A stretch of 64,000 bases of DNA from Gammaproteobacteria bacterium (lineage in GTDB: Bacteria; Pseudomonadota; Gammaproteobacteria; Eutrophobiales; Eutrophobiaceae), in contig OZ271833.1 in NCBI GenBank assembly GCA_965601665.1, forward strand, positions 5,092 through 69,091, read 5' to 3'. Under the pieces are notes generated by a model, which was not told where the DNA came from, did no database searches, and was given only the letters and a program-made list of their open reading frames with translations. Made by a program: the position numbers and the translations under genes. Positions 9,683 to 17,722 of this stretch are shown here, piece after piece. The stretch's first letter is position 1; the number at the start of each line of letters is the position of its first letter.

Positions 9683-9904
9683 GTATTTGCCGCTCTGGAT
9701 GCTTTTCAGAGGCATTTTCGCCGGCTTCTATTGTGCTAGAATAGGGCGTAACTTCACCGGGTTACACACTGTGTCTGTAGCTCAACTGGATGACGTGCAG
9801 GATGCACGAATATCGCGAAGGCAGGACGCCGGGAGCGATGAGAGTATGCAGCGCGAAGCGCTGATAAATTCTTGTATAATGGCAGTAATGAAAACCTCTA
9901 TCGT

Positions 9905-9981
9905 GCGCCTGTAGCTCAACTGGATAGAGTATCGGGCTTCGAACCCGAGGGTTGGGGGTTCGAGTCCCTCCGGGCGCGCCA
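9905..9981 (+). tRNA. tRNA-Arg (anticodon read as UCG), 77 nt including encoded CCA
   Basis: Manual cloverleaf: acceptor GCGCCTG/CGGGCGC, D-arm GCTC..GAGT with GG in loop, anticodon stem TCGGG/CCCGA, loop C-U-UCG-A-A, T-arm GGGGG-TTCGAGT-CCCTC, CCA. The anticodon assignment should be confirmed with tRNAscan-SE. Confidence 0.8.
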
Positions 9982-10146
9982 TCCATAAAACAAGCCACCG
10001 TCAGGTGGTTTTTTTTATGGATTAGTATTGGTGGGACGAGAACGAAGTTCGACAAATCGGCAGGACAGCCGATTTGGGCAGACGCAGTCTGCACGAAGTG
10101 CGAGCTACACGGATGTAGCGAGTCAATCCCTCCGGGCGCGCCAATC
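9937..10146 (+). repeat. 210-bp direct repeat copy 1 (tRNA 3' half from the anticodon loop, plus terminator and about 160 bp downstream; ends with a second 18-nt copy of the tRNA 3' end)
   Basis: identical to 11129..11338. Confidence 0.85.
9991..10016 (+). terminator. rho-independent terminator directly after the tRNA
   Basis: hairpin CCACC-GTCA-GGTGG followed by T8. Confidence 0.7.
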
Positions 10147-10191
10147 GATTAATCAATCGACACTGACCCTATTGATTATCACAGTAAATTC

Positions 10192-10875
10192 TTACGTAAA
10201 TCTATACCGAGAGATGAGACTAAGTAGTGCGGAGAAAAAAAATATTAAAGATGATGGCAAAGGAACGGGTGATACTTCTATACGCATTGCTAATTCAGTA
10301 GCTAGCCCAGAATTGATAGTCCATTCTTCGCCAACAAACCTTTGAGCTATATACTCATCACCACAAGTAGTACCACAGCTATAAGCTCTAAAGTCTTCTT
10401 GAGCAATACGCCAACTACTAAAACCATCGATGGTTTTATTTTCAGCGATGATCCAATATTTTTCGTTTTCATTTAGTAGTGTCGTGTTTGTCCAATGAAA
10501 TTCGTACAAGGGCCAAGGGAATATTTGTTCTATTGTTGTTGGAGAAGAAATTTCTAAAATCGAACCTGGACTATTGTTATTATCATTCCATATCGACAGC
10601 TCAATTTCACTTTCATTTAAAAAACTACTCTCTGTGAAAGGCGCAATGATCTTGTCTAAATAGCCAGAAGCGGTTGGTATAAATTGCATGCCTGCTTGAA
10701 ATGGAGATGCATTTTCGCGAAACCACTCTGTGCCAGGGCCTGCAACAGCAAAGCCTCCGCGTACAGGGTTCGGAATAGTTGTCATAGTATTATCAAACAC
10801 TACCAAAGCTGCATCTGCTTTGGACGAAAAAAGCAATAAGATTAAAAGAAACTTAAAGCTGTCTTTCGCTTTCAT
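10192..10875 (-). CDS. secreted protein with PEP-CTERM-like (VPLP-type) C-terminal sorting signal
   Basis: signal peptide; C-terminus PVPLPSSLIFFFSALLSLISRYRFT has a proline motif, a TM helix and a basic tail; AT-rich cassette between tRNA-half repeats. Confidence 0.5.
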   Translation of the reverse strand: MKAKDSFKFLLILLLFSSKADAALVVFDNTMTTIPNPVRGGFAVAGPGTEWFRENASPFQAGMQFIPTASGYLDKIIAPFTESSFLNESEIELSIWNDNNNSPGSILEISSPTTIEQIFPWPLYEFHWTNTTLLNENEKYWIIAENKTIDGFSSWRIAQEDFRAYSCGTTCGDEYIAQRFVGEEWTINSGLATELAMRIEVSPVPLPSSLIFFFSALLSLISRYRFT

Positions 10876-11128
10876 GACTTGAGCATTAATCTCATATAGA
10901 TATAAAAGATAAGCATAATCTAGCTGCGTGTCATAATTGTTACAAACTGAATTTTAATAACGCTAGAGTCGATGATTTCATGCTTATACTATTATCCGCT
11001 TCTGGCCGATTTTTGACAAAAACTATGCAGCTAGATTGTGACTTATTTAGGCTTACTGTAGCTTTTCTTATAATATTGCGAGCGTTGCAAGTAGTTGAAA
11101 GTAATAAGATTGACTAATATTAGTTCCC

Positions 11129-11338
11129 CTTCGAACCCGAGGGTTGGGGGTTCGAGTCCCTCCGGGCGCGCCATCCATAAAACAAGCCACCGTCAGGTGG
11201 TTTTTTTTATGGATTAGTATTGGTGGGACGAGAACGAAGTTCGACAAATCGGCAGGACAGCCGATTTGGGCAGACGCAGTCTGCACGAAGTGCGAGCTAC
11301 ACGGATGTAGCGAGTCAATCCCTCCGGGCGCGCCAATC
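11129..11338 (+). repeat. 210-bp direct repeat copy 2 (tRNA-Arg 3' half plus downstream block); att-like
   Basis: identical to 9937..10146; preceded by the conserved arm (about 11076..11128). Confidence 0.85.
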
Positions 11339-11512
11339 ATACCAAAAGTTTAATGTAGTCTTATCCACTTATCGTCAATGACATGGTGGTTTGGCTGAGT
11401 TTCGTCCCGTGTTACTAGCACGGGGCATCTTGGTGCTCTCAATCGCTCGTATCCTCGCTCTGAATCGCACTAGATGCATACGAGAAATAAACATAAAAAA
11501 CAGTATTATTGA

Positions 11513-12100
11513 TTAAGGCTTTACAATTAAATGACAAAATAATGAAACTCCATCATATATTCTTTCAACTACTATTTGTTTAGATAAGGCAGATTGATCT
11601 GGTATTAATGAATCTGGATCATAAATAAAGAAAATCAGATTTCTACATGTAGGGTTATGCCTATAAGTTTCAATATCATCATGAAGTTCTTTTGTTATAT
11701 TTTTTCCATGGGAAGCATCTCTTATATATTTTACTTCAATAATAGTTTTTGCAGATGGGCTAATGAAATCTTTTATGGTGAATCTATTTGCAACTTTATC
11801 GGTAGGATTTTCTGGTGTTAGATCAAGTACCCAAGGCCTGAGCATTATATACAAAGCGTCTTGCACTGCTGCTTCAGAATCAAGTGTAAGTACTGTTTTT
11901 GTACTCCTGCGAGTATTCAAATACCGTACAACTTCTTGAAATTGTTCAAGCGCTGCAATAATTTGTGAAGTCTTTACAGTTCCAGCTTCTTCAGCATTGG
12001 GTTCAGATGAATGCTTTTTTGACAGTGTTGAAACAGCATTAGCTAATGCTGGTAAAGTTGATATATCAATCATCATTATTGCCTGAAACATCTCTGCCAA
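11513..12100 (-). CDS. hypothetical protein with a candidate PD-(D/E)xK nuclease motif
   Basis: 195 aa; D(FISPSAKTII)EVK fits D-x10-E-x-K; overlaps the upstream gene by 35 nt (operon); AT-rich cassette. Confidence 0.4.
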   Translation of the reverse strand: MAEMFQAIMMIDISTLPALANAVSTLSKKHSSEPNAEEAGTVKTSQIIAALEQFQEVVRYLNTRRSTKTVLTLDSEAAVQDALYIMLRPWVLDLTPENPTDKVANRFTIKDFISPSAKTIIEVKYIRDASHGKNITKELHDDIETYRHNPTCRNLIFFIYDPDSLIPDQSALSKQIVVERIYDGVSLFCHLIVKP

Positions 12101-12752
12101 AAATATAGCGAGCTATATCTTCAAAAATATATTCATAATCTCTTCTGCTTTTGTTTTCAGGTAAATGAATATGTAAATCAATATGAAACTGCGGACTATT
12201 GTCTTGACCAGGTGGATTATTTAAACCTGTTGCTCCAGAGTTTTGAGTACTAGAGGAGTTTACAGGTGCTATGCTTGCTCCAAAATCAGCATAATCACAT
12301 ATAGCTTTGAAAGTAGATATTTGATATTGAATAGCTCTGTCGCTACCACCTGAATGAACATTAAAATAATTTTTTAACGTATCATCAGACTCTCTATGAG
12401 GTTCATGTGAATTCTCAAAAATCGGTGCCCAGCAATTTTTTATTCCTTGAGCTAATATGCCTGGCCCAGATTCTGGCATCATAAACTGCTTATATTGATC
12501 TGTAGGTTCACCAGTTGAAGTTAATAAACCAACATTTTTGATAACTCGAAGTATTGTTGCATCGTTTGAATTTCTTAAACCCCATGACTTCAATGTCTCT
12601 CCTGTGATTTTGGTGGGTTTAGGTTTGGTTGGTACTAACTCTAAAAACCTTCTCAATGAGTTTGGGACGGTTGTATATGGAAATTTCGGGGTTGATATGC
12701 TTTCAGAACTTTTACTCCTTGTTTTCTTTTTAGCTACTTTTTTCTTTGCCAT
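12066..12752 (-). CDS. hypothetical protein with Lys-rich N-terminus (MAKKKVAKKKTRSK), partner of the nuclease-like gene
   Basis: 228-aa ORF, no recognisable domain; co-oriented and overlapping with 11513..12100. Confidence 0.4.
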   Translation of the reverse strand: MAKKKVAKKKTRSKSSESISTPKFPYTTVPNSLRRFLELVPTKPKPTKITGETLKSWGLRNSNDATILRVIKNVGLLTSTGEPTDQYKQFMMPESGPGILAQGIKNCWAPIFENSHEPHRESDDTLKNYFNVHSGGSDRAIQYQISTFKAICDYADFGASIAPVNSSSTQNSGATGLNNPPGQDNSPQFHIDLHIHLPENKSRRDYEYIFEDIARYIFGRDVSGNNDD

Positions 12753-12972
12753 ATCAATTCTCCATATCCATATTTATTTATGTTTCAAACGTATAGTGAA
12801 AGTATAACTAATAATAATTGTATGTCTTTAACAGATTTAATTTAACAAATTTGAGCGCTGCAATATGTTTTTAGAAAATGATTGTGAAAATTTCCTACAA
12901 AATTTTAACCAAAAGACGATGATTTGTATTTGTTACAAATAAGTTACATTAATATATGACCTAATCTGATCG

Positions 12973-13272
12973 TTATAACACCTTTTCAAATACCATTGTG
13001 GCTTGGATTTTATCTCCACCCAAAAATCCCTTTGAACCTGATGAAGTAGTCGAAATAGTATGTAATCTATATCCTTGAGCTACCTGCTTATTTATCGTCG
13101 ATTGTAAATTAGTGAGGCTGGTGCCTCCGGAGCCTGTTCCGACTAATTTTTCTGTCAAAACAACTTGTATGACTATATACATATCTCCTTTTTTTCCCTG
13201 TGCGGCAATCGCGTCTGCATCAAATCCAAATCCTGCCATTGTTATCTCCTGATTAATAATAAAATCTGCCAA
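12973..13272 (-). CDS. small hypothetical protein (99 aa)
   Basis: ORF in AT-rich cassette 2; no recognisable domain. Confidence 0.35.
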   Translation of the reverse strand: MADFIINQEITMAGFGFDADAIAAQGKKGDMYIVIQVVLTEKLVGTGSGGTSLTNLQSTINKQVAQGYRLHTISTTSSGSKGFLGGDKIQATMVFEKVL

Positions 13273-13395
13273 CGATAGTATTGTAGCTATTGTGCGTTTT
13301 AATAATACTTATTGTGACTTATTGTAGCTACAGTTGTACGAGTGCGAGCGTTGCAAGTCATTGAAATGTAATTAGATTGGATTTGCCGGGTTCCT

Positions 13396-13440
13396 CTTCG
13401 AACCCGAGGGTTGGGGGTTCGAGTCCCTCCGGGCGCGCCA
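13396..13440 (+). repeat. 45-nt direct repeat copy 3 of the tRNA-Arg 3' half (anticodon loop to CCA)
   Basis: cttcgaacccgagggttgggggttcgagtccctccgggcgcgcca identical to 9937..9981; preceded by the conserved arm (about 13343..13395); followed by its own hairpin aagccacc-ttgc-ggtggctt. Confidence 0.85.
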
Positions 13441-13492
13441 TAATTAACAAAGCCACCTTGCGGTGGCTTCGTTGTTTTACAAATTTAGTTCT

Positions 13493-14176
13493 CTAGAACC
13501 GATAACCAATTATTCCCATGGCTCTGAAAGTTTCAAATTCAGCTTCAGTGCCGGAAAAGTTAGCATCATACCTAAGGTAGGATGCATTAACTCCTATATA
13601 AGCATTCGCAGTAATGTCATAATCAAAGCCACCCATAAACTGGAATGCGAAATCTGAATCATCATCACTACCGCTTACACTAATGCCTGCAATATTTGCA
13701 CTAAGATCAACATCAGTAAATGCATAGCCAACACCGGCACCAATATAAGGATGAAAGCTGCTGTTGTTAAATGACGAGCCATCATTATCACGCCATAAAA
13801 AATTAACAGTGAACAAATCTGTTTCATACTCAATTTCAAGAGGAACCAATAAAACTAAATTAGCAAAAGTGTCACCAGGTGACCCTGAATAGTCAGCGTC
13901 AGTAATCCGATTATATTGGATGCCGAATGTAAATTCCGGATAAAGTGACCAGGCTTTATCGACATATAACCCGACGCCATATGAAAGTCCTTCATCTGTG
14001 TCAAGATCATCCGAAATACCAGCTTCGGAAAGCTCTGGGTCACCGGTAGCAATACCAAATTGACCCTCAAGTCTTGTCTCATATGCTGCAGTATTAAATG
14101 CAACAAGCGTTAGTATCGAACTTAACAACAAATATTTTTTTAATTTCACAACCCATCCCCTTTGAAAAAAAAACAA
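13493..14176 (-). CDS. OmpW-like 8-strand outer-membrane beta-barrel protein
   Basis: signal peptide (KLKKYLLLSSILTLVAFNTAA), alternating amphipathic strands, PYIGAGVGY and C-terminal GYRF as in OmpW. Confidence 0.55.
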   Translation of the reverse strand: MFFFQRGWVVKLKKYLLLSSILTLVAFNTAAYETRLEGQFGIATGDPELSEAGISDDLDTDEGLSYGVGLYVDKAWSLYPEFTFGIQYNRITDADYSGSPGDTFANLVLLVPLEIEYETDLFTVNFLWRDNDGSSFNNSSFHPYIGAGVGYAFTDVDLSANIAGISVSGSDDDSDFAFQFMGGFDYDITANAYIGVNASYLRYDANFSGTEAEFETFRAMGIIGYRF

Positions 14177-14329
14177 TACGGTAACACTCAGTGAAGGTAG
14201 CGTTGAATAGTAAGTAAGTACTATAAGAATATATTCAGGATATTTTCCTGTAGGACATGCTTACGAATTTGTTGCTGAGCGCGCCTTACAAATCATTGAA
14301 ATATAATAAGATTGAATTATCAGCCTTCT

Positions 14330-14448
14330 CTTCGAAACCGAGGGTTGGGGGTTCGACAACTTTGCAGGAGCAAAAGTTGAACCGCAGAAGGCGGGCCCCG
14401 TAGGGGTGGGGCACAAGGATGTGCCGAATAATACCTCCGGACGCGCCA
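14330..14448 (+). repeat. degenerate copy 4 of the tRNA-Arg 3' half, carrying a 76-nt structured insertion in the T-loop region
   Basis: cttcgaaAccgagggttgggggttcga + insertion (14358..14433) + cctccggAcgcgcca; preceded by the conserved arm (about 14276..14329). Confidence 0.75.
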
Positions 14449-14547
14449 TCTAGTTTTCTGGATATATAATTCCGTCAACTCATGTTTTTACATGGAACAG
14501 GAACCAACTGGCTTGATCTGGTTATATCCGGATTTGGAGAGGCGAAT

Positions 14548-14919
14548 ATGCGGTATTTATTGCTCATAATAGTTTTAACCCTTTCTTCTAATTTGAAGGC
14601 AGACTGGGTCGAGTATTCCACCAGGGTAAATGGTGATGTCTATTACTTTGATGATGCACGTGTACAAAAGAACGGTAGTCGGGTCACCGTTTGGAATAGG
14701 GCCCGGTACAAGACTTCGGTAATGGCCGCGTTCAGTTATCAAAGCCAGATTGTTATCGATTGTGCTACCTATTCAGTGGCAACAACAGAAAGTACCTTTT
14801 ACCTGGATAAGGATTGGCTCAAGCCTGCCATGGCGACTGACAGTACCGAGAAGCCCTGGGTAAGTATAGATGCTGAATCAGCAATCGGAGAACTGGCCAA
14901 CAAACTCTGCAAGGAATAG
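14548..14919 (+). CDS. small secreted protein of unknown function
   Basis: signal peptide MRYLLLIIVLTLSSNLKA; ORF track start 14482 probably too early. Confidence 0.4.
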   Translation: MRYLLLIIVLTLSSNLKADWVEYSTRVNGDVYYFDDARVQKNGSRVTVWNRARYKTSVMAAFSYQSQIVIDCATYSVATTESTFYLDKDWLKPAMATDSTEKPWVSIDAESAIGELANKLCKE

Positions 14920-17188: not shown

Positions 17189-17722
17189 TTATGAAGCAGG
17201 TGGCAGAATTACGGTGTCAATCACGTGAATAACGCCGTTGGTTGCCATTACATCCGTCGCTACGACTGTTGCAGTATTGACCTTGACTGATTCCTGCTCT
17301 ACTGAAATAGATACATCTGCACCATTAACGGTTGTTGCACTATCCAGTTTGACCACGTCAGCTGCCATTACCTTACCTGAGACGACATGATAGGTCAGTA
17401 CAGCTTTCAGCTGCTCGATGTTTTCAGGCTTCAACAGGTTTTCAACGGTACCTGCTGGAAGTTTTGCAAATGCTTCGTCGGTCGGAGCAAATACGGTAAA
17501 AGGGCCATCCCCCTTTAAAACGTCGATTAAACCGCCAGCCTTCAGCGCGGCTGCCAGGGTATTAAAACTGCCATTTGCGACAGCAACATCAACGATGTCC
17601 TGGCTTTCTGCTTTTTTCTCAGCAGCACCTGCAACCATACTAATGGCAAGCAGGGAAGCCGCTATAGCACCTGACAGGACTCTCATCACGTTTGAACTGG
17701 TAATAGTAATTGAATTAGACAT
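17189..17722 (-). CDS. fasciclin (FAS1) domain secreted protein
   Basis: signal peptide; [11 protein letters not shown]...LTYHVV...[11 protein letters not shown]1 motifs. Confidence 0.8.

Follow-up and report, generated by a model that had tools for sequence, protein, structure and literature searches.

A 64,000-nucleotide (nt) stretch of DNA from a Gammaproteobacteria bacterium (GenBank assembly GCA_965601665.1, contig OZ271833.1, positions 5,092 to 69,091 of the forward strand), which we refer to as the window, contains two overlapping minus-strand genes that a first-pass annotation made from the sequence alone had singled out as a candidate defence or addiction system. The upstream gene (gene A) encodes a DUF5343 protein and the downstream gene (gene B) a small nuclease of the PD-(D/E)xK type. 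On balance, we lean towards the view that the two constitute a self-contained, mobile, toxin-like nuclease module with a tail-bearing regulator that functions in defence or addiction, a role that we infer. The case is carried by the identity of the nuclease, by its pairing with DUF5343 in other genomes, by the replacement of the effector in a sister clade of DUF5343 proteins, and by the conservation of a short C-terminal tail.

The nuclease and its DUF5343 partner

The gene B protein matches the Pfam family REase_DpnII-MboI (PF18742) over residues 49-176 with an E-value of 2e-28 and a score of 99.3 bits, against a cut-off of 27. The D-x10-E-V-K motif that the first-pass annotation had regarded as compatible with a PD-(D/E)xK core lies within this match. 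Its D103, E114 and K116 do not vary among 30 aligned gene B homologues, and neither does E68, which completes the E...D...ExK set. EcbAgaN (PDB accession code 23wq) is the only solved relative of gene B that was found by sequence (E 1.6e-4 with the single sequence, 1.3e-6 with the profile). The profile covers the whole EcbAgaN core (chain residues 250-366 of 390), and the motif of gene B aligns with D298/E309/V310/K311 of that protein. In the AlphaFold2 model of gene B, whose predicted local distance difference test (pLDDT) value is 84.7, the elements follow one another as alpha-beta-beta-beta-alpha-beta, as they do in the restriction-endonuclease (REase) fold, and its top Foldseek matches are all REase-fold nucleases (EcoO109I, Can2, Mus81, SgrAI, BstYI), although none of them is significant (E 0.02 or higher). 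The Pfam match, the invariant catalytic residues, the model and the homology to a solved DNase support a nuclease fold; judged by its sequence, gene B is a PD-(D/E)xK nuclease, and the motif is not a chance resemblance.

In PADLOC, gene B matches the Aga_Helical-REase models alone (E up to 1), and does so with their C-terminal nuclease part (profile positions 222-365 of 378); it lacks the N-terminal regulatory domain of bAgaN, which comprises about 220 amino acids (aa). NCBIfam holds no family for the gene A or the gene B protein, and among the PHROGs gene B matches an unannotated family only. EcbAgaN requires its residues D298-E309-V310-K311 to act as a DNase; on its own, the nuclease domain is toxic, the N-terminal domain autoinhibits it, and the enzyme is activated by the sensor prokaryotic Argonaute (pAgo) through assembly (PMC13535254). 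By analogy with this homologue, gene B is predicted to be a Mg-dependent DNase. Plasmid-borne relatives of the nuclease are distant (25-43% identity) and form the C-terminal domains of larger proteins that adjoin a KAP NTPase, a nucleotide cyclase or a TIR gene. One of them, on the Enterobacter plasmid pCP102 (L063:2924-4537), has 266 aa, carries the DpnII-MboI nuclease domain at its C-terminus and is encoded directly 3' of an annotated adenylate/guanylate cyclase; the two may be a defence pair based on cyclic-nucleotide signalling, with an effector drawn from the same nuclease clade.

The first-pass annotation could name no domain in the upstream protein, a statement that did not hold: residues 25-159 match DUF5343 (Pfam PF17278) with an E-value of 1.7e-28. 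The protein also matches the PADLOC model PDC-M34A (PDLC04589; E 1.1e-34), its residues 24-213 aligning with profile positions 5-203 of 208. There were 292 gene A homologues, and an exhaustive profile search yielded 1,884 DUF5343 clusters at 50% identity; among 15 billion proteins, no relative is more than 90% identical to the copy in the window. An alignment of 28 homologues resolves four segments, namely the basic N-terminus, the domain, a low-complexity linker and the tail, whose mean column identities are listed in the table below. The strongly basic N-terminus that had been pointed out is present in this protein, but it is a variable segment across the family. The tail, IHIDLHIHLPENKSRRDYEYIFEDIARYI, is near-invariant and the most conserved segment of DUF5343, with a column identity of 0.82 versus 0.66 for the domain. 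Residues 21-160 of the AlphaFold2 model are confident and helical, the linker is disordered, and the tail contains one helix. As modelled, the domain starts with an H-H-H-hairpin reminiscent of a winged helix and continues as a helical bundle. No solved relative in the PDB was matched by DUF5343, whether as a single sequence or as a profile, Foldseek comparisons of the model with the PDB and with BFVD returned nothing significant, and literature searches on DUF5343, PDC-M34 and AF1680 gave no relevant paper.

Both minus-strand open reading frames (ORFs), at 12066..12752 and 11513..12100, were confirmed in the ORF list. Gene A begins with an ATG that is preceded at a distance of 7 nt by a GGAG sequence (12760-12763). 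Gene B would encode 195 aa if the TTG at 12100 were its start; because its product is publicly annotated with 187 aa (P0121) and homologues measure 182-193 aa, the ATG at 12076 is the likely start, and the overlap between the genes is therefore 11 nt and not the 35 nt reported initially, a value that stands with the TTG start. Judging from this arrangement on one strand, the genes are translationally coupled under either start.

Pairing, mobility and the sister module

Scanning one genome per species, we collected 41 DUF5343 loci that span more than ten phyla, among them Acidobacteriota, Planctomycetota, Verrucomicrobiota, Nitrospinota, Myxococcota, several Proteobacteria, Bdellovibrionales and two phyla of the candidate phyla radiation (CPR). 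In 40 of them the nuclease gene follows directly, on the same strand and at 48-68% identity, and the single exception stops at a contig edge; annotated contigs carry the DUF5343-nuclease pairing as well. Moreover, the distance matrices of gene A and gene B correlate with a Mantel r of 0.68 that none of 2000 permutations reached. The association between DUF5343 and the nuclease is obligatory, and the proposal that the two genes belong together is thereby upheld across many phyla.

The pair bears the signature of a horizontally mobile unit. Its GC content lies below that of the flanks in all 46 loci evaluated, on average by 8 points, and the 150 ORFs that flank the pairs represent 131 Pfam families, each of them encountered at most twice and most of them housekeeping; among these 150 flanking ORFs of the 41 loci there is no recurrent methyltransferase, integrase or phage gene. 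The idea that such pairs would be found together in defence islands is borne out only in its first half, since the pair is conserved but is usually a lone two-gene insertion amid housekeeping genes and not part of a defence island. A copy from a lucinid symbiont adjoins a tyrosine integrase, a TIR protein and BrnT/BrnA, and another lies inside a Type I restriction-modification (R-M) system, flanked by hsdS and hsdR (L044:2686-7185). DUF5343 has no relative in IMG/VR, in 50,697 phage records or in 72,556 plasmids, and the homologues consequently lie outside the prophage structural modules in which the first-pass annotation had seen a possible counterargument. A tRNA gene is present less than 600 nt upstream of the pair in six loci; repeats of the attachment-site (att) type are seen in the window alone, with none of at least 14 nt at the other tRNA-adjacent copies.

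A shorter DUF5343 clade, whose members comprise about 205 aa, keeps the tail pattern and has as its next downstream gene not the REase but a member of the family AF_1680 (PF27235). Viewed from AF_1680, the DUF5343 gene stands directly upstream in 76 of 78 informative metagenome loci, in Archaeoglobus fulgidus and in another long contig. Proteins of this clade carry no basic N-terminal extension, and the sequence of their tail is unlike that of the REase-partnered clade. An effector swap has thus occurred between the DUF5343 clades: with the REase in one of them and AF_1680 in its sister, DUF5343 is the constant partner of two unrelated nuclease-type effectors.

AF_1680 itself is all-alpha, and R140-N-E-C-A-H145-P is invariant in 21 sequences, an R-x4-H arrangement as in HEPN proteins. 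Its Pfam signals are solely sub-threshold (E 0.017-0.09) and concern DUF4145, HEPN_RiboL-PSP, HEPN_Swt1 and Hypoth_Ymh, all of them families of the HEPN clan; neither a HEPN profile nor a PDB entry is matched significantly by AF_1680. On account of the invariant RNECAHP motif and of these sub-threshold matches to four HEPN-clan families, we read AF_1680 as putatively HEPN-type and probably an unrecognised family of HEPN-type RNases. The possibility that it is a cryptic REase was rejected (hhalign probability 0.2% or lower). Separately, a 1,617-aa match with 22 stretches (P0374) was set aside as a low-complexity artefact.

Within the REase-partnered clade the tail does not vary; it diverges in the AF_1680 clade, and several decayed or rearranged loci retain it. 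The DUF5343 gene of L044 is reduced to a 93-aa ORF in which the N-terminus is fused straight and in frame to linker and tail, next to an intact nuclease gene; in L070 and L071, the last ~80 DUF5343 residues alone remain upstream of an intact AF_1680 gene. Likewise preceding an intact AF_1680 gene, a 257-aa protein (L089:549-1319) joins a non-DUF5343 N-terminal domain that has no Pfam match to a DUF5343-type tail, and is, from its sequence, a natural domain swap. These sequence patterns suggest that the tail is an element that contacts the effector and that the N-terminal domain is a replaceable module for sensing or DNA binding. Decay in the other direction is seen in L007 and L008, where the nuclease is interrupted or truncated and DUF5343 is intact. 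The nuclease gene of the deltaproteobacterial copy L007 (8653-10463) is split by an insertion of about 1.2 kilobases (kb) that carries opposite-strand ORFs of 294 aa and 101 aa; this insertion may be an insertion sequence element.

The tRNA-Arg islet in the window

The AT-rich cassette bounded by att-like tRNA-half repeats that the first-pass annotation described was recovered. GC is 0.30-0.35 over 11.5-13 kb, compared with about 0.47 for the remaining window, and exact 45-nt repeats of the 3' half of the tRNA-Arg(tcg) gene are found within the gene itself (9937-9981) and on both sides of the pair, where none was expected by chance (100 shuffles). Since these tRNA 3'-half repeats stand at both ends, the gene pair sits in an att-bounded AT-rich islet of 2.3 kb. 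Its neighbours in the window are an 88-aa ORF, an outer-membrane protein (OMP) gene and the tRNA repeats. None of the ORFs at 9.9-14.5 kb encodes an integrase (ORF list, Pfam and NCBIfam scans), so that mobilisation of the islet would have to be in trans. An inverted-repeat scan located palindromes at 12844-12869 and 12884-12909 in the AT-rich leader; sub-threshold Rfam matches in the islet (BSR0602, Anti-Q) lie far under the gathering scores and were disregarded.

Features of the gene pair and its islet in the window, and examples of AF_1680 genes in other loci
Feature	Position	Strand	Evidence or remarks
tRNA-Arg(tcg), integration target with repeated 3' half	9905..9981	+	ARAGORN; Rfam 66.4 bits
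Left islet boundary, exact 45-nt copy of tRNA-Arg 3' half	11129..11173	+	Repeat search
Gene B, 187-aa PD-(D/E)xK nuclease, REase_DpnII-MboI / AgaN clade, proposed effector	11513..12076	-	Pfam, PADLOC, EcbAgaN profile match, AlphaFold2
Catalytic D-x10-E-V-K, DFISPSAKTIIEVKY	11729..11770 (D 11768-11770; E-V-K 11729-11737)	-	D103, E114, K116 in 187-aa numbering
Gene A, 228-aa DUF5343 protein, proposed regulator/sensor partner	12066..12752	-	ORF, Pfam, PADLOC
Gene A residues 189-222, C-terminal tail FHIDLHIHLPENKSRRDYEYIFEDIARYIFGR (beta-strand, Pro, helix), proposed effector-contacting element	12087..12188	-	Identity 0.82
Gene A residues 160-188, variable low-complexity disordered linker	12189..12275	-	pLDDT below 50; identity 0.28
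Gene A residues 25-159, DUF5343 globular domain, mostly helical	12276..12680	-	pLDDT 85-96; identity 0.66
Gene A residues 1-24, variable Lys/Ser-rich N-terminal extension starting MAKKKVAKKKTRSK	12681..12752	-	Identity 0.43; low pLDDT; missing in the short subfamily
Promoter-like site AAGACA-16-TATACT in the 220-nt AT-rich leader	12801..12828	-	Consensus scan, 9/12 matches, not above shuffled background; weak
Right islet boundary, exact 45-nt copy of tRNA-Arg 3' half	13396..13440	+	Repeat search; terminator-like hairpin 13450-13469 next to it
AF_1680 gene, example	L047:5617-6153
AF_1680 gene, example (A. fulgidus)	L058:4001-4594

The islet is the second of three tiny cargo islets that are arranged in tandem downstream of the tRNA-Arg gene (9905-14375), each ending in a copy of the tRNA 3' half; the third copy (14324-14375) is degenerate, and no integrase is encoded inside the array. 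The cargo consists of a choice-of-anchor-R surface protein (10192-10875), of the nuclease pair with the 88-aa ORF, and of an OMP beta-barrel protein (13493-14176). A perfect duplication of 210 nt (9937-10146 = 11129-11338) takes in the terminator hairpin of the tRNA. At their right ends, islets 1 and 2 each have a 60-nt segment just ahead of the att copy (11041-11100 and 13307-13366), and the two segments are 77% identical, which suggests that these two islets share a terminal, perhaps arm-type, sequence and belong to one element family. Furthermore, 134 nt upstream of the tRNA gene there is a 22-nt copy (91%) of its 5' end at 9770-9791, which may be the remnant of an earlier tRNA copy or of a rearrangement.

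The 88-aa ORF (12973-13239, minus strand) has an AGGAG ribosome-binding site, and the 99-aa version in the ORF list (12973-13272) starts upstream at a TTG. It belongs by its match (E 1.7e-29) with the unannotated phage family phrog_22683 and shows a weak match to DUF4177; as a member of the module it was rejected, because it is near the pair in no other locus. Directly past the islet array, an Adhesin_E-family surface protein is encoded, with more exported proteins close by (14482-14919 and 17189-17722), and the tRNA-Arg region seems to collect surface-protein genes.

Function, rival explanations and known systems

How the module would work can be sketched as follows. Gene B would be the effector, a small Mg-dependent PD-(D/E)xK DNase, to which the gene A protein would bind via the beta-strand/helix tail at its C-terminus and which it would thereby either keep harmless or direct. 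The basic N-terminus and the helical, winged-helix-like domain of gene A may bind nucleic acid, either to sense infection or in the role of an autoregulator. Perturbation of the partner, be it by phage infection or by loss of the module, would lead the nuclease to degrade DNA, with abortive infection or post-segregational killing as the outcome. DUF5343 would thus be the constant regulatory component and the nuclease an interchangeable weapon. Nuclease activity, toxicity, tail contact, binding of nucleic acid by gene A and the biological role are all predictions, and the defence-or-addiction reading, as first proposed for this pair, is supported by the present analysis as something that we infer.

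Several points weigh against this reading. The winged-helix assignment of DUF5343 is without statistical support (best Foldseek E 0.36), and the contact between tail and effector is deduced from conservation and decay patterns at three to four loci. AF_1680 genes without DUF5343 or a tail upstream exist in L087 and L106, so that the dependence of AF_1680 on the tail is not absolute. Recognised defence genes seldom adjoin the pair, with PADLOC returning 12 single matches only for the 150 neighbours. A gene A protein of 228 aa that is highly conserved is unusual for a type II antitoxin. As to the PADLOC model that gene A matches, the 145 PDC systems are candidates only by their authors' own statement (bioRxiv 10.1101/2024.01.29.577857), and the PDC-M34B models are matched in PADLOC neither by the REase of the window and two homologues nor by the AF_1680 partners.

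The pair might instead be a plain type II toxin-antitoxin addiction module devoid of any anti-phage role, in which DUF5343 is the antitoxin, its N-terminal part serving as a DNA-binding autorepressor and its C-terminal tail neutralising the toxin, and the REase is the toxin that stabilises the islet. An antitoxin-like gene that comes first and overlaps the next one agrees with this, as does the build of gene A, in which a disordered linker connects a folded N-terminal domain to a short conserved element at the C-terminus. So do the asymmetric decay, by which the toxin is lost with gene A intact (L007, L008) or the tail kept with the toxin intact (L044, L070), the classical occurrence of HEPN-type toxins in such modules, and a lone-islet context in place of a defence island. 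The usual antitoxins, however, have 70-100 aa and evolve fast, whereas gene A carries a tail that is near-invariant across phyla; no DUF5343 was found on the plasmids, where addiction modules thrive; and one copy is located within a Type I R-M operon, the kind of embedding by which the PDC family was nominated. This explanation overlaps heavily with the module that we favour and differs from it in biological role alone; we consider it unlikely. A methylase-less restriction enzyme, either Type IV-like and modification-dependent or solitary and Type II-like, with DUF5343 as its DNA-recognition subunit or as a controller resembling a C-protein, would be in keeping with a Pfam family named after DpnII/MboI, with Type II enzymes (EcoO109I, SgrAI, BstYI) as the best Foldseek matches, with the winged-helix-like order of helices and the basic tail of gene A, with the similarity of a small upstream regulator overlapping the REase gene to C-protein operons, and with the copy inside a Type I R-M locus. 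Those Foldseek matches are non-significant, though; the islet in the window contains no methyltransferase and none recurs among the 150 neighbours, the nearest solved relative is a non-specific effector DNase, and the service of DUF5343 to an unrelated HEPN-like, RNase-type protein ill fits a DNA-specificity subunit, all of which makes a restriction enzyme quite improbable.

Insertion without an integrase could also reflect a selfish homing-type element, whose nuclease cuts empty target sites into which the two-gene unit is then copied. Such an element would account for minimal insertions of the kind seen here, low-GC two-gene units standing alone in many genomes, an islet without integrase in the window, a nearby upstream tRNA in six loci and a copy between hsdS and hsdR. 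Yet the insertion contexts nearly all differ (131 families for 150 neighbours) and share no common target site, the other tRNA-adjacent loci are without flanking repeats, and the att-type repeats of the window are typical of integrase-mediated insertion in trans, so that we attach very little weight to homing. Repair enzymes are found among the PD-(D/E)xK nucleases and housekeeping genes are often the neighbours of the pair, as a housekeeping nuclease of DNA repair or recombination with an accessory factor would have it; its sporadic occurrence across phyla while identity holds at 45-70%, a GC that is always below that of the flanks, the missing conserved synteny and a copy in the window that lacks a close relative render this hardly credible.

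Beyond the favoured module of nuclease and tail-bearing regulator, we put forward, tentatively, the broader possibility that the DUF5343 family comprises pan-prokaryotic, modular two-gene conflict systems in which a tail of about 35 aa tethers and gates swappable nucleases (a PD-(D/E)xK DNase or a HEPN-like RNase), with an N-terminal sensing domain that can be deleted or swapped, and that the window holds a divergent AT-rich member on an integrase-less tRNA islet. Should the favoured model hold, the modules would be among the most compact and widespread nuclease-based immune or addiction systems, with ~415 codons and a range from CPR bacteria to Archaeoglobus, and a short near-invariant peptide handle would control two unrelated nucleases. 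DUF5343 and AF_1680 would gain a function, a PADLOC candidate would be validated, and a minimal peptide-gated DNase/RNase pair might become available for engineering. The family illustrates defence-like cargo that is located outside defence islands and is missed by enrichment-based discovery methods.

Among known systems, one of the closest is the candidate PDC-M34 of Payne et al. (bioRxiv 10.1101/2024.01.29.577857), a two-gene cassette (FAM_01148>>FAM_01657) with 97 occurrences; PDC systems were nominated because they are embedded in BREX, DISARM or Type I R-M loci ('guilt-by-embedding'). Gene A fits the PDC-M34A model almost end to end, both are two-gene cassettes, and the relative in L044 is embedded in a Type I R-M operon, as in the PDC nominations. 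With no match to PDC-M34B, PADLOC would not call PDC-M34 here, and with a gene A that fits PDC-M34A and a partner that does not fit PDC-M34B, the window pair is at most a variant of this candidate. The initial remark that the pair was not recognised as any named system needs qualification for gene A, already catalogued as PDC-M34A.

With the BPAN systems (long-B pAgo plus bAgaN; PMC13535254, PMC10620215), the pair shares homologous nuclease cores and a common D-EVK motif, and by analogy we propose for it the same logic, in which a toxic DNase, there EcbAgaN, is held off until its partner acts. The partner here is DUF5343, which has no similarity to pAgo; no Argonaute gene adjoins the pair in the window or occurs in the census of 150 neighbours, and since both an Argonaute and the N-terminal domain of bAgaN are missing, the pair is not a BPAN system. 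DpnII and MboI belong to the same Pfam nuclease family as gene B and have the same PD-(D/E)xK core, but gene B is much smaller and has an obligate partner that is not a methylase; without a methyltransferase alongside, the pair is not a Type II R-M system.

An overlapping operon with the regulator first and nuclease-type effectors, an arrangement present in 40 loci, resembles the type II toxin-antitoxin systems (of the RelBE/CcdAB type, and HEPN-MNT for the sister clade), from which the pair differs in that gene A is large, unusually conserved and without sequence relation to known antitoxins. By analogy, the pair may work like a toxin-antitoxin or abortive-infection pair. The pair of DUF5343 and AF_1680 has the DUF5343 scaffold, the tail pattern, the gene order and the coupling in common with the window pair and is equally obligate, while its all-alpha, HEPN-like effector is unrelated to the REase. 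Viewed against all of these systems, we rate the pair as belonging, as a variant, among the small nuclease-plus-regulator conflict modules.

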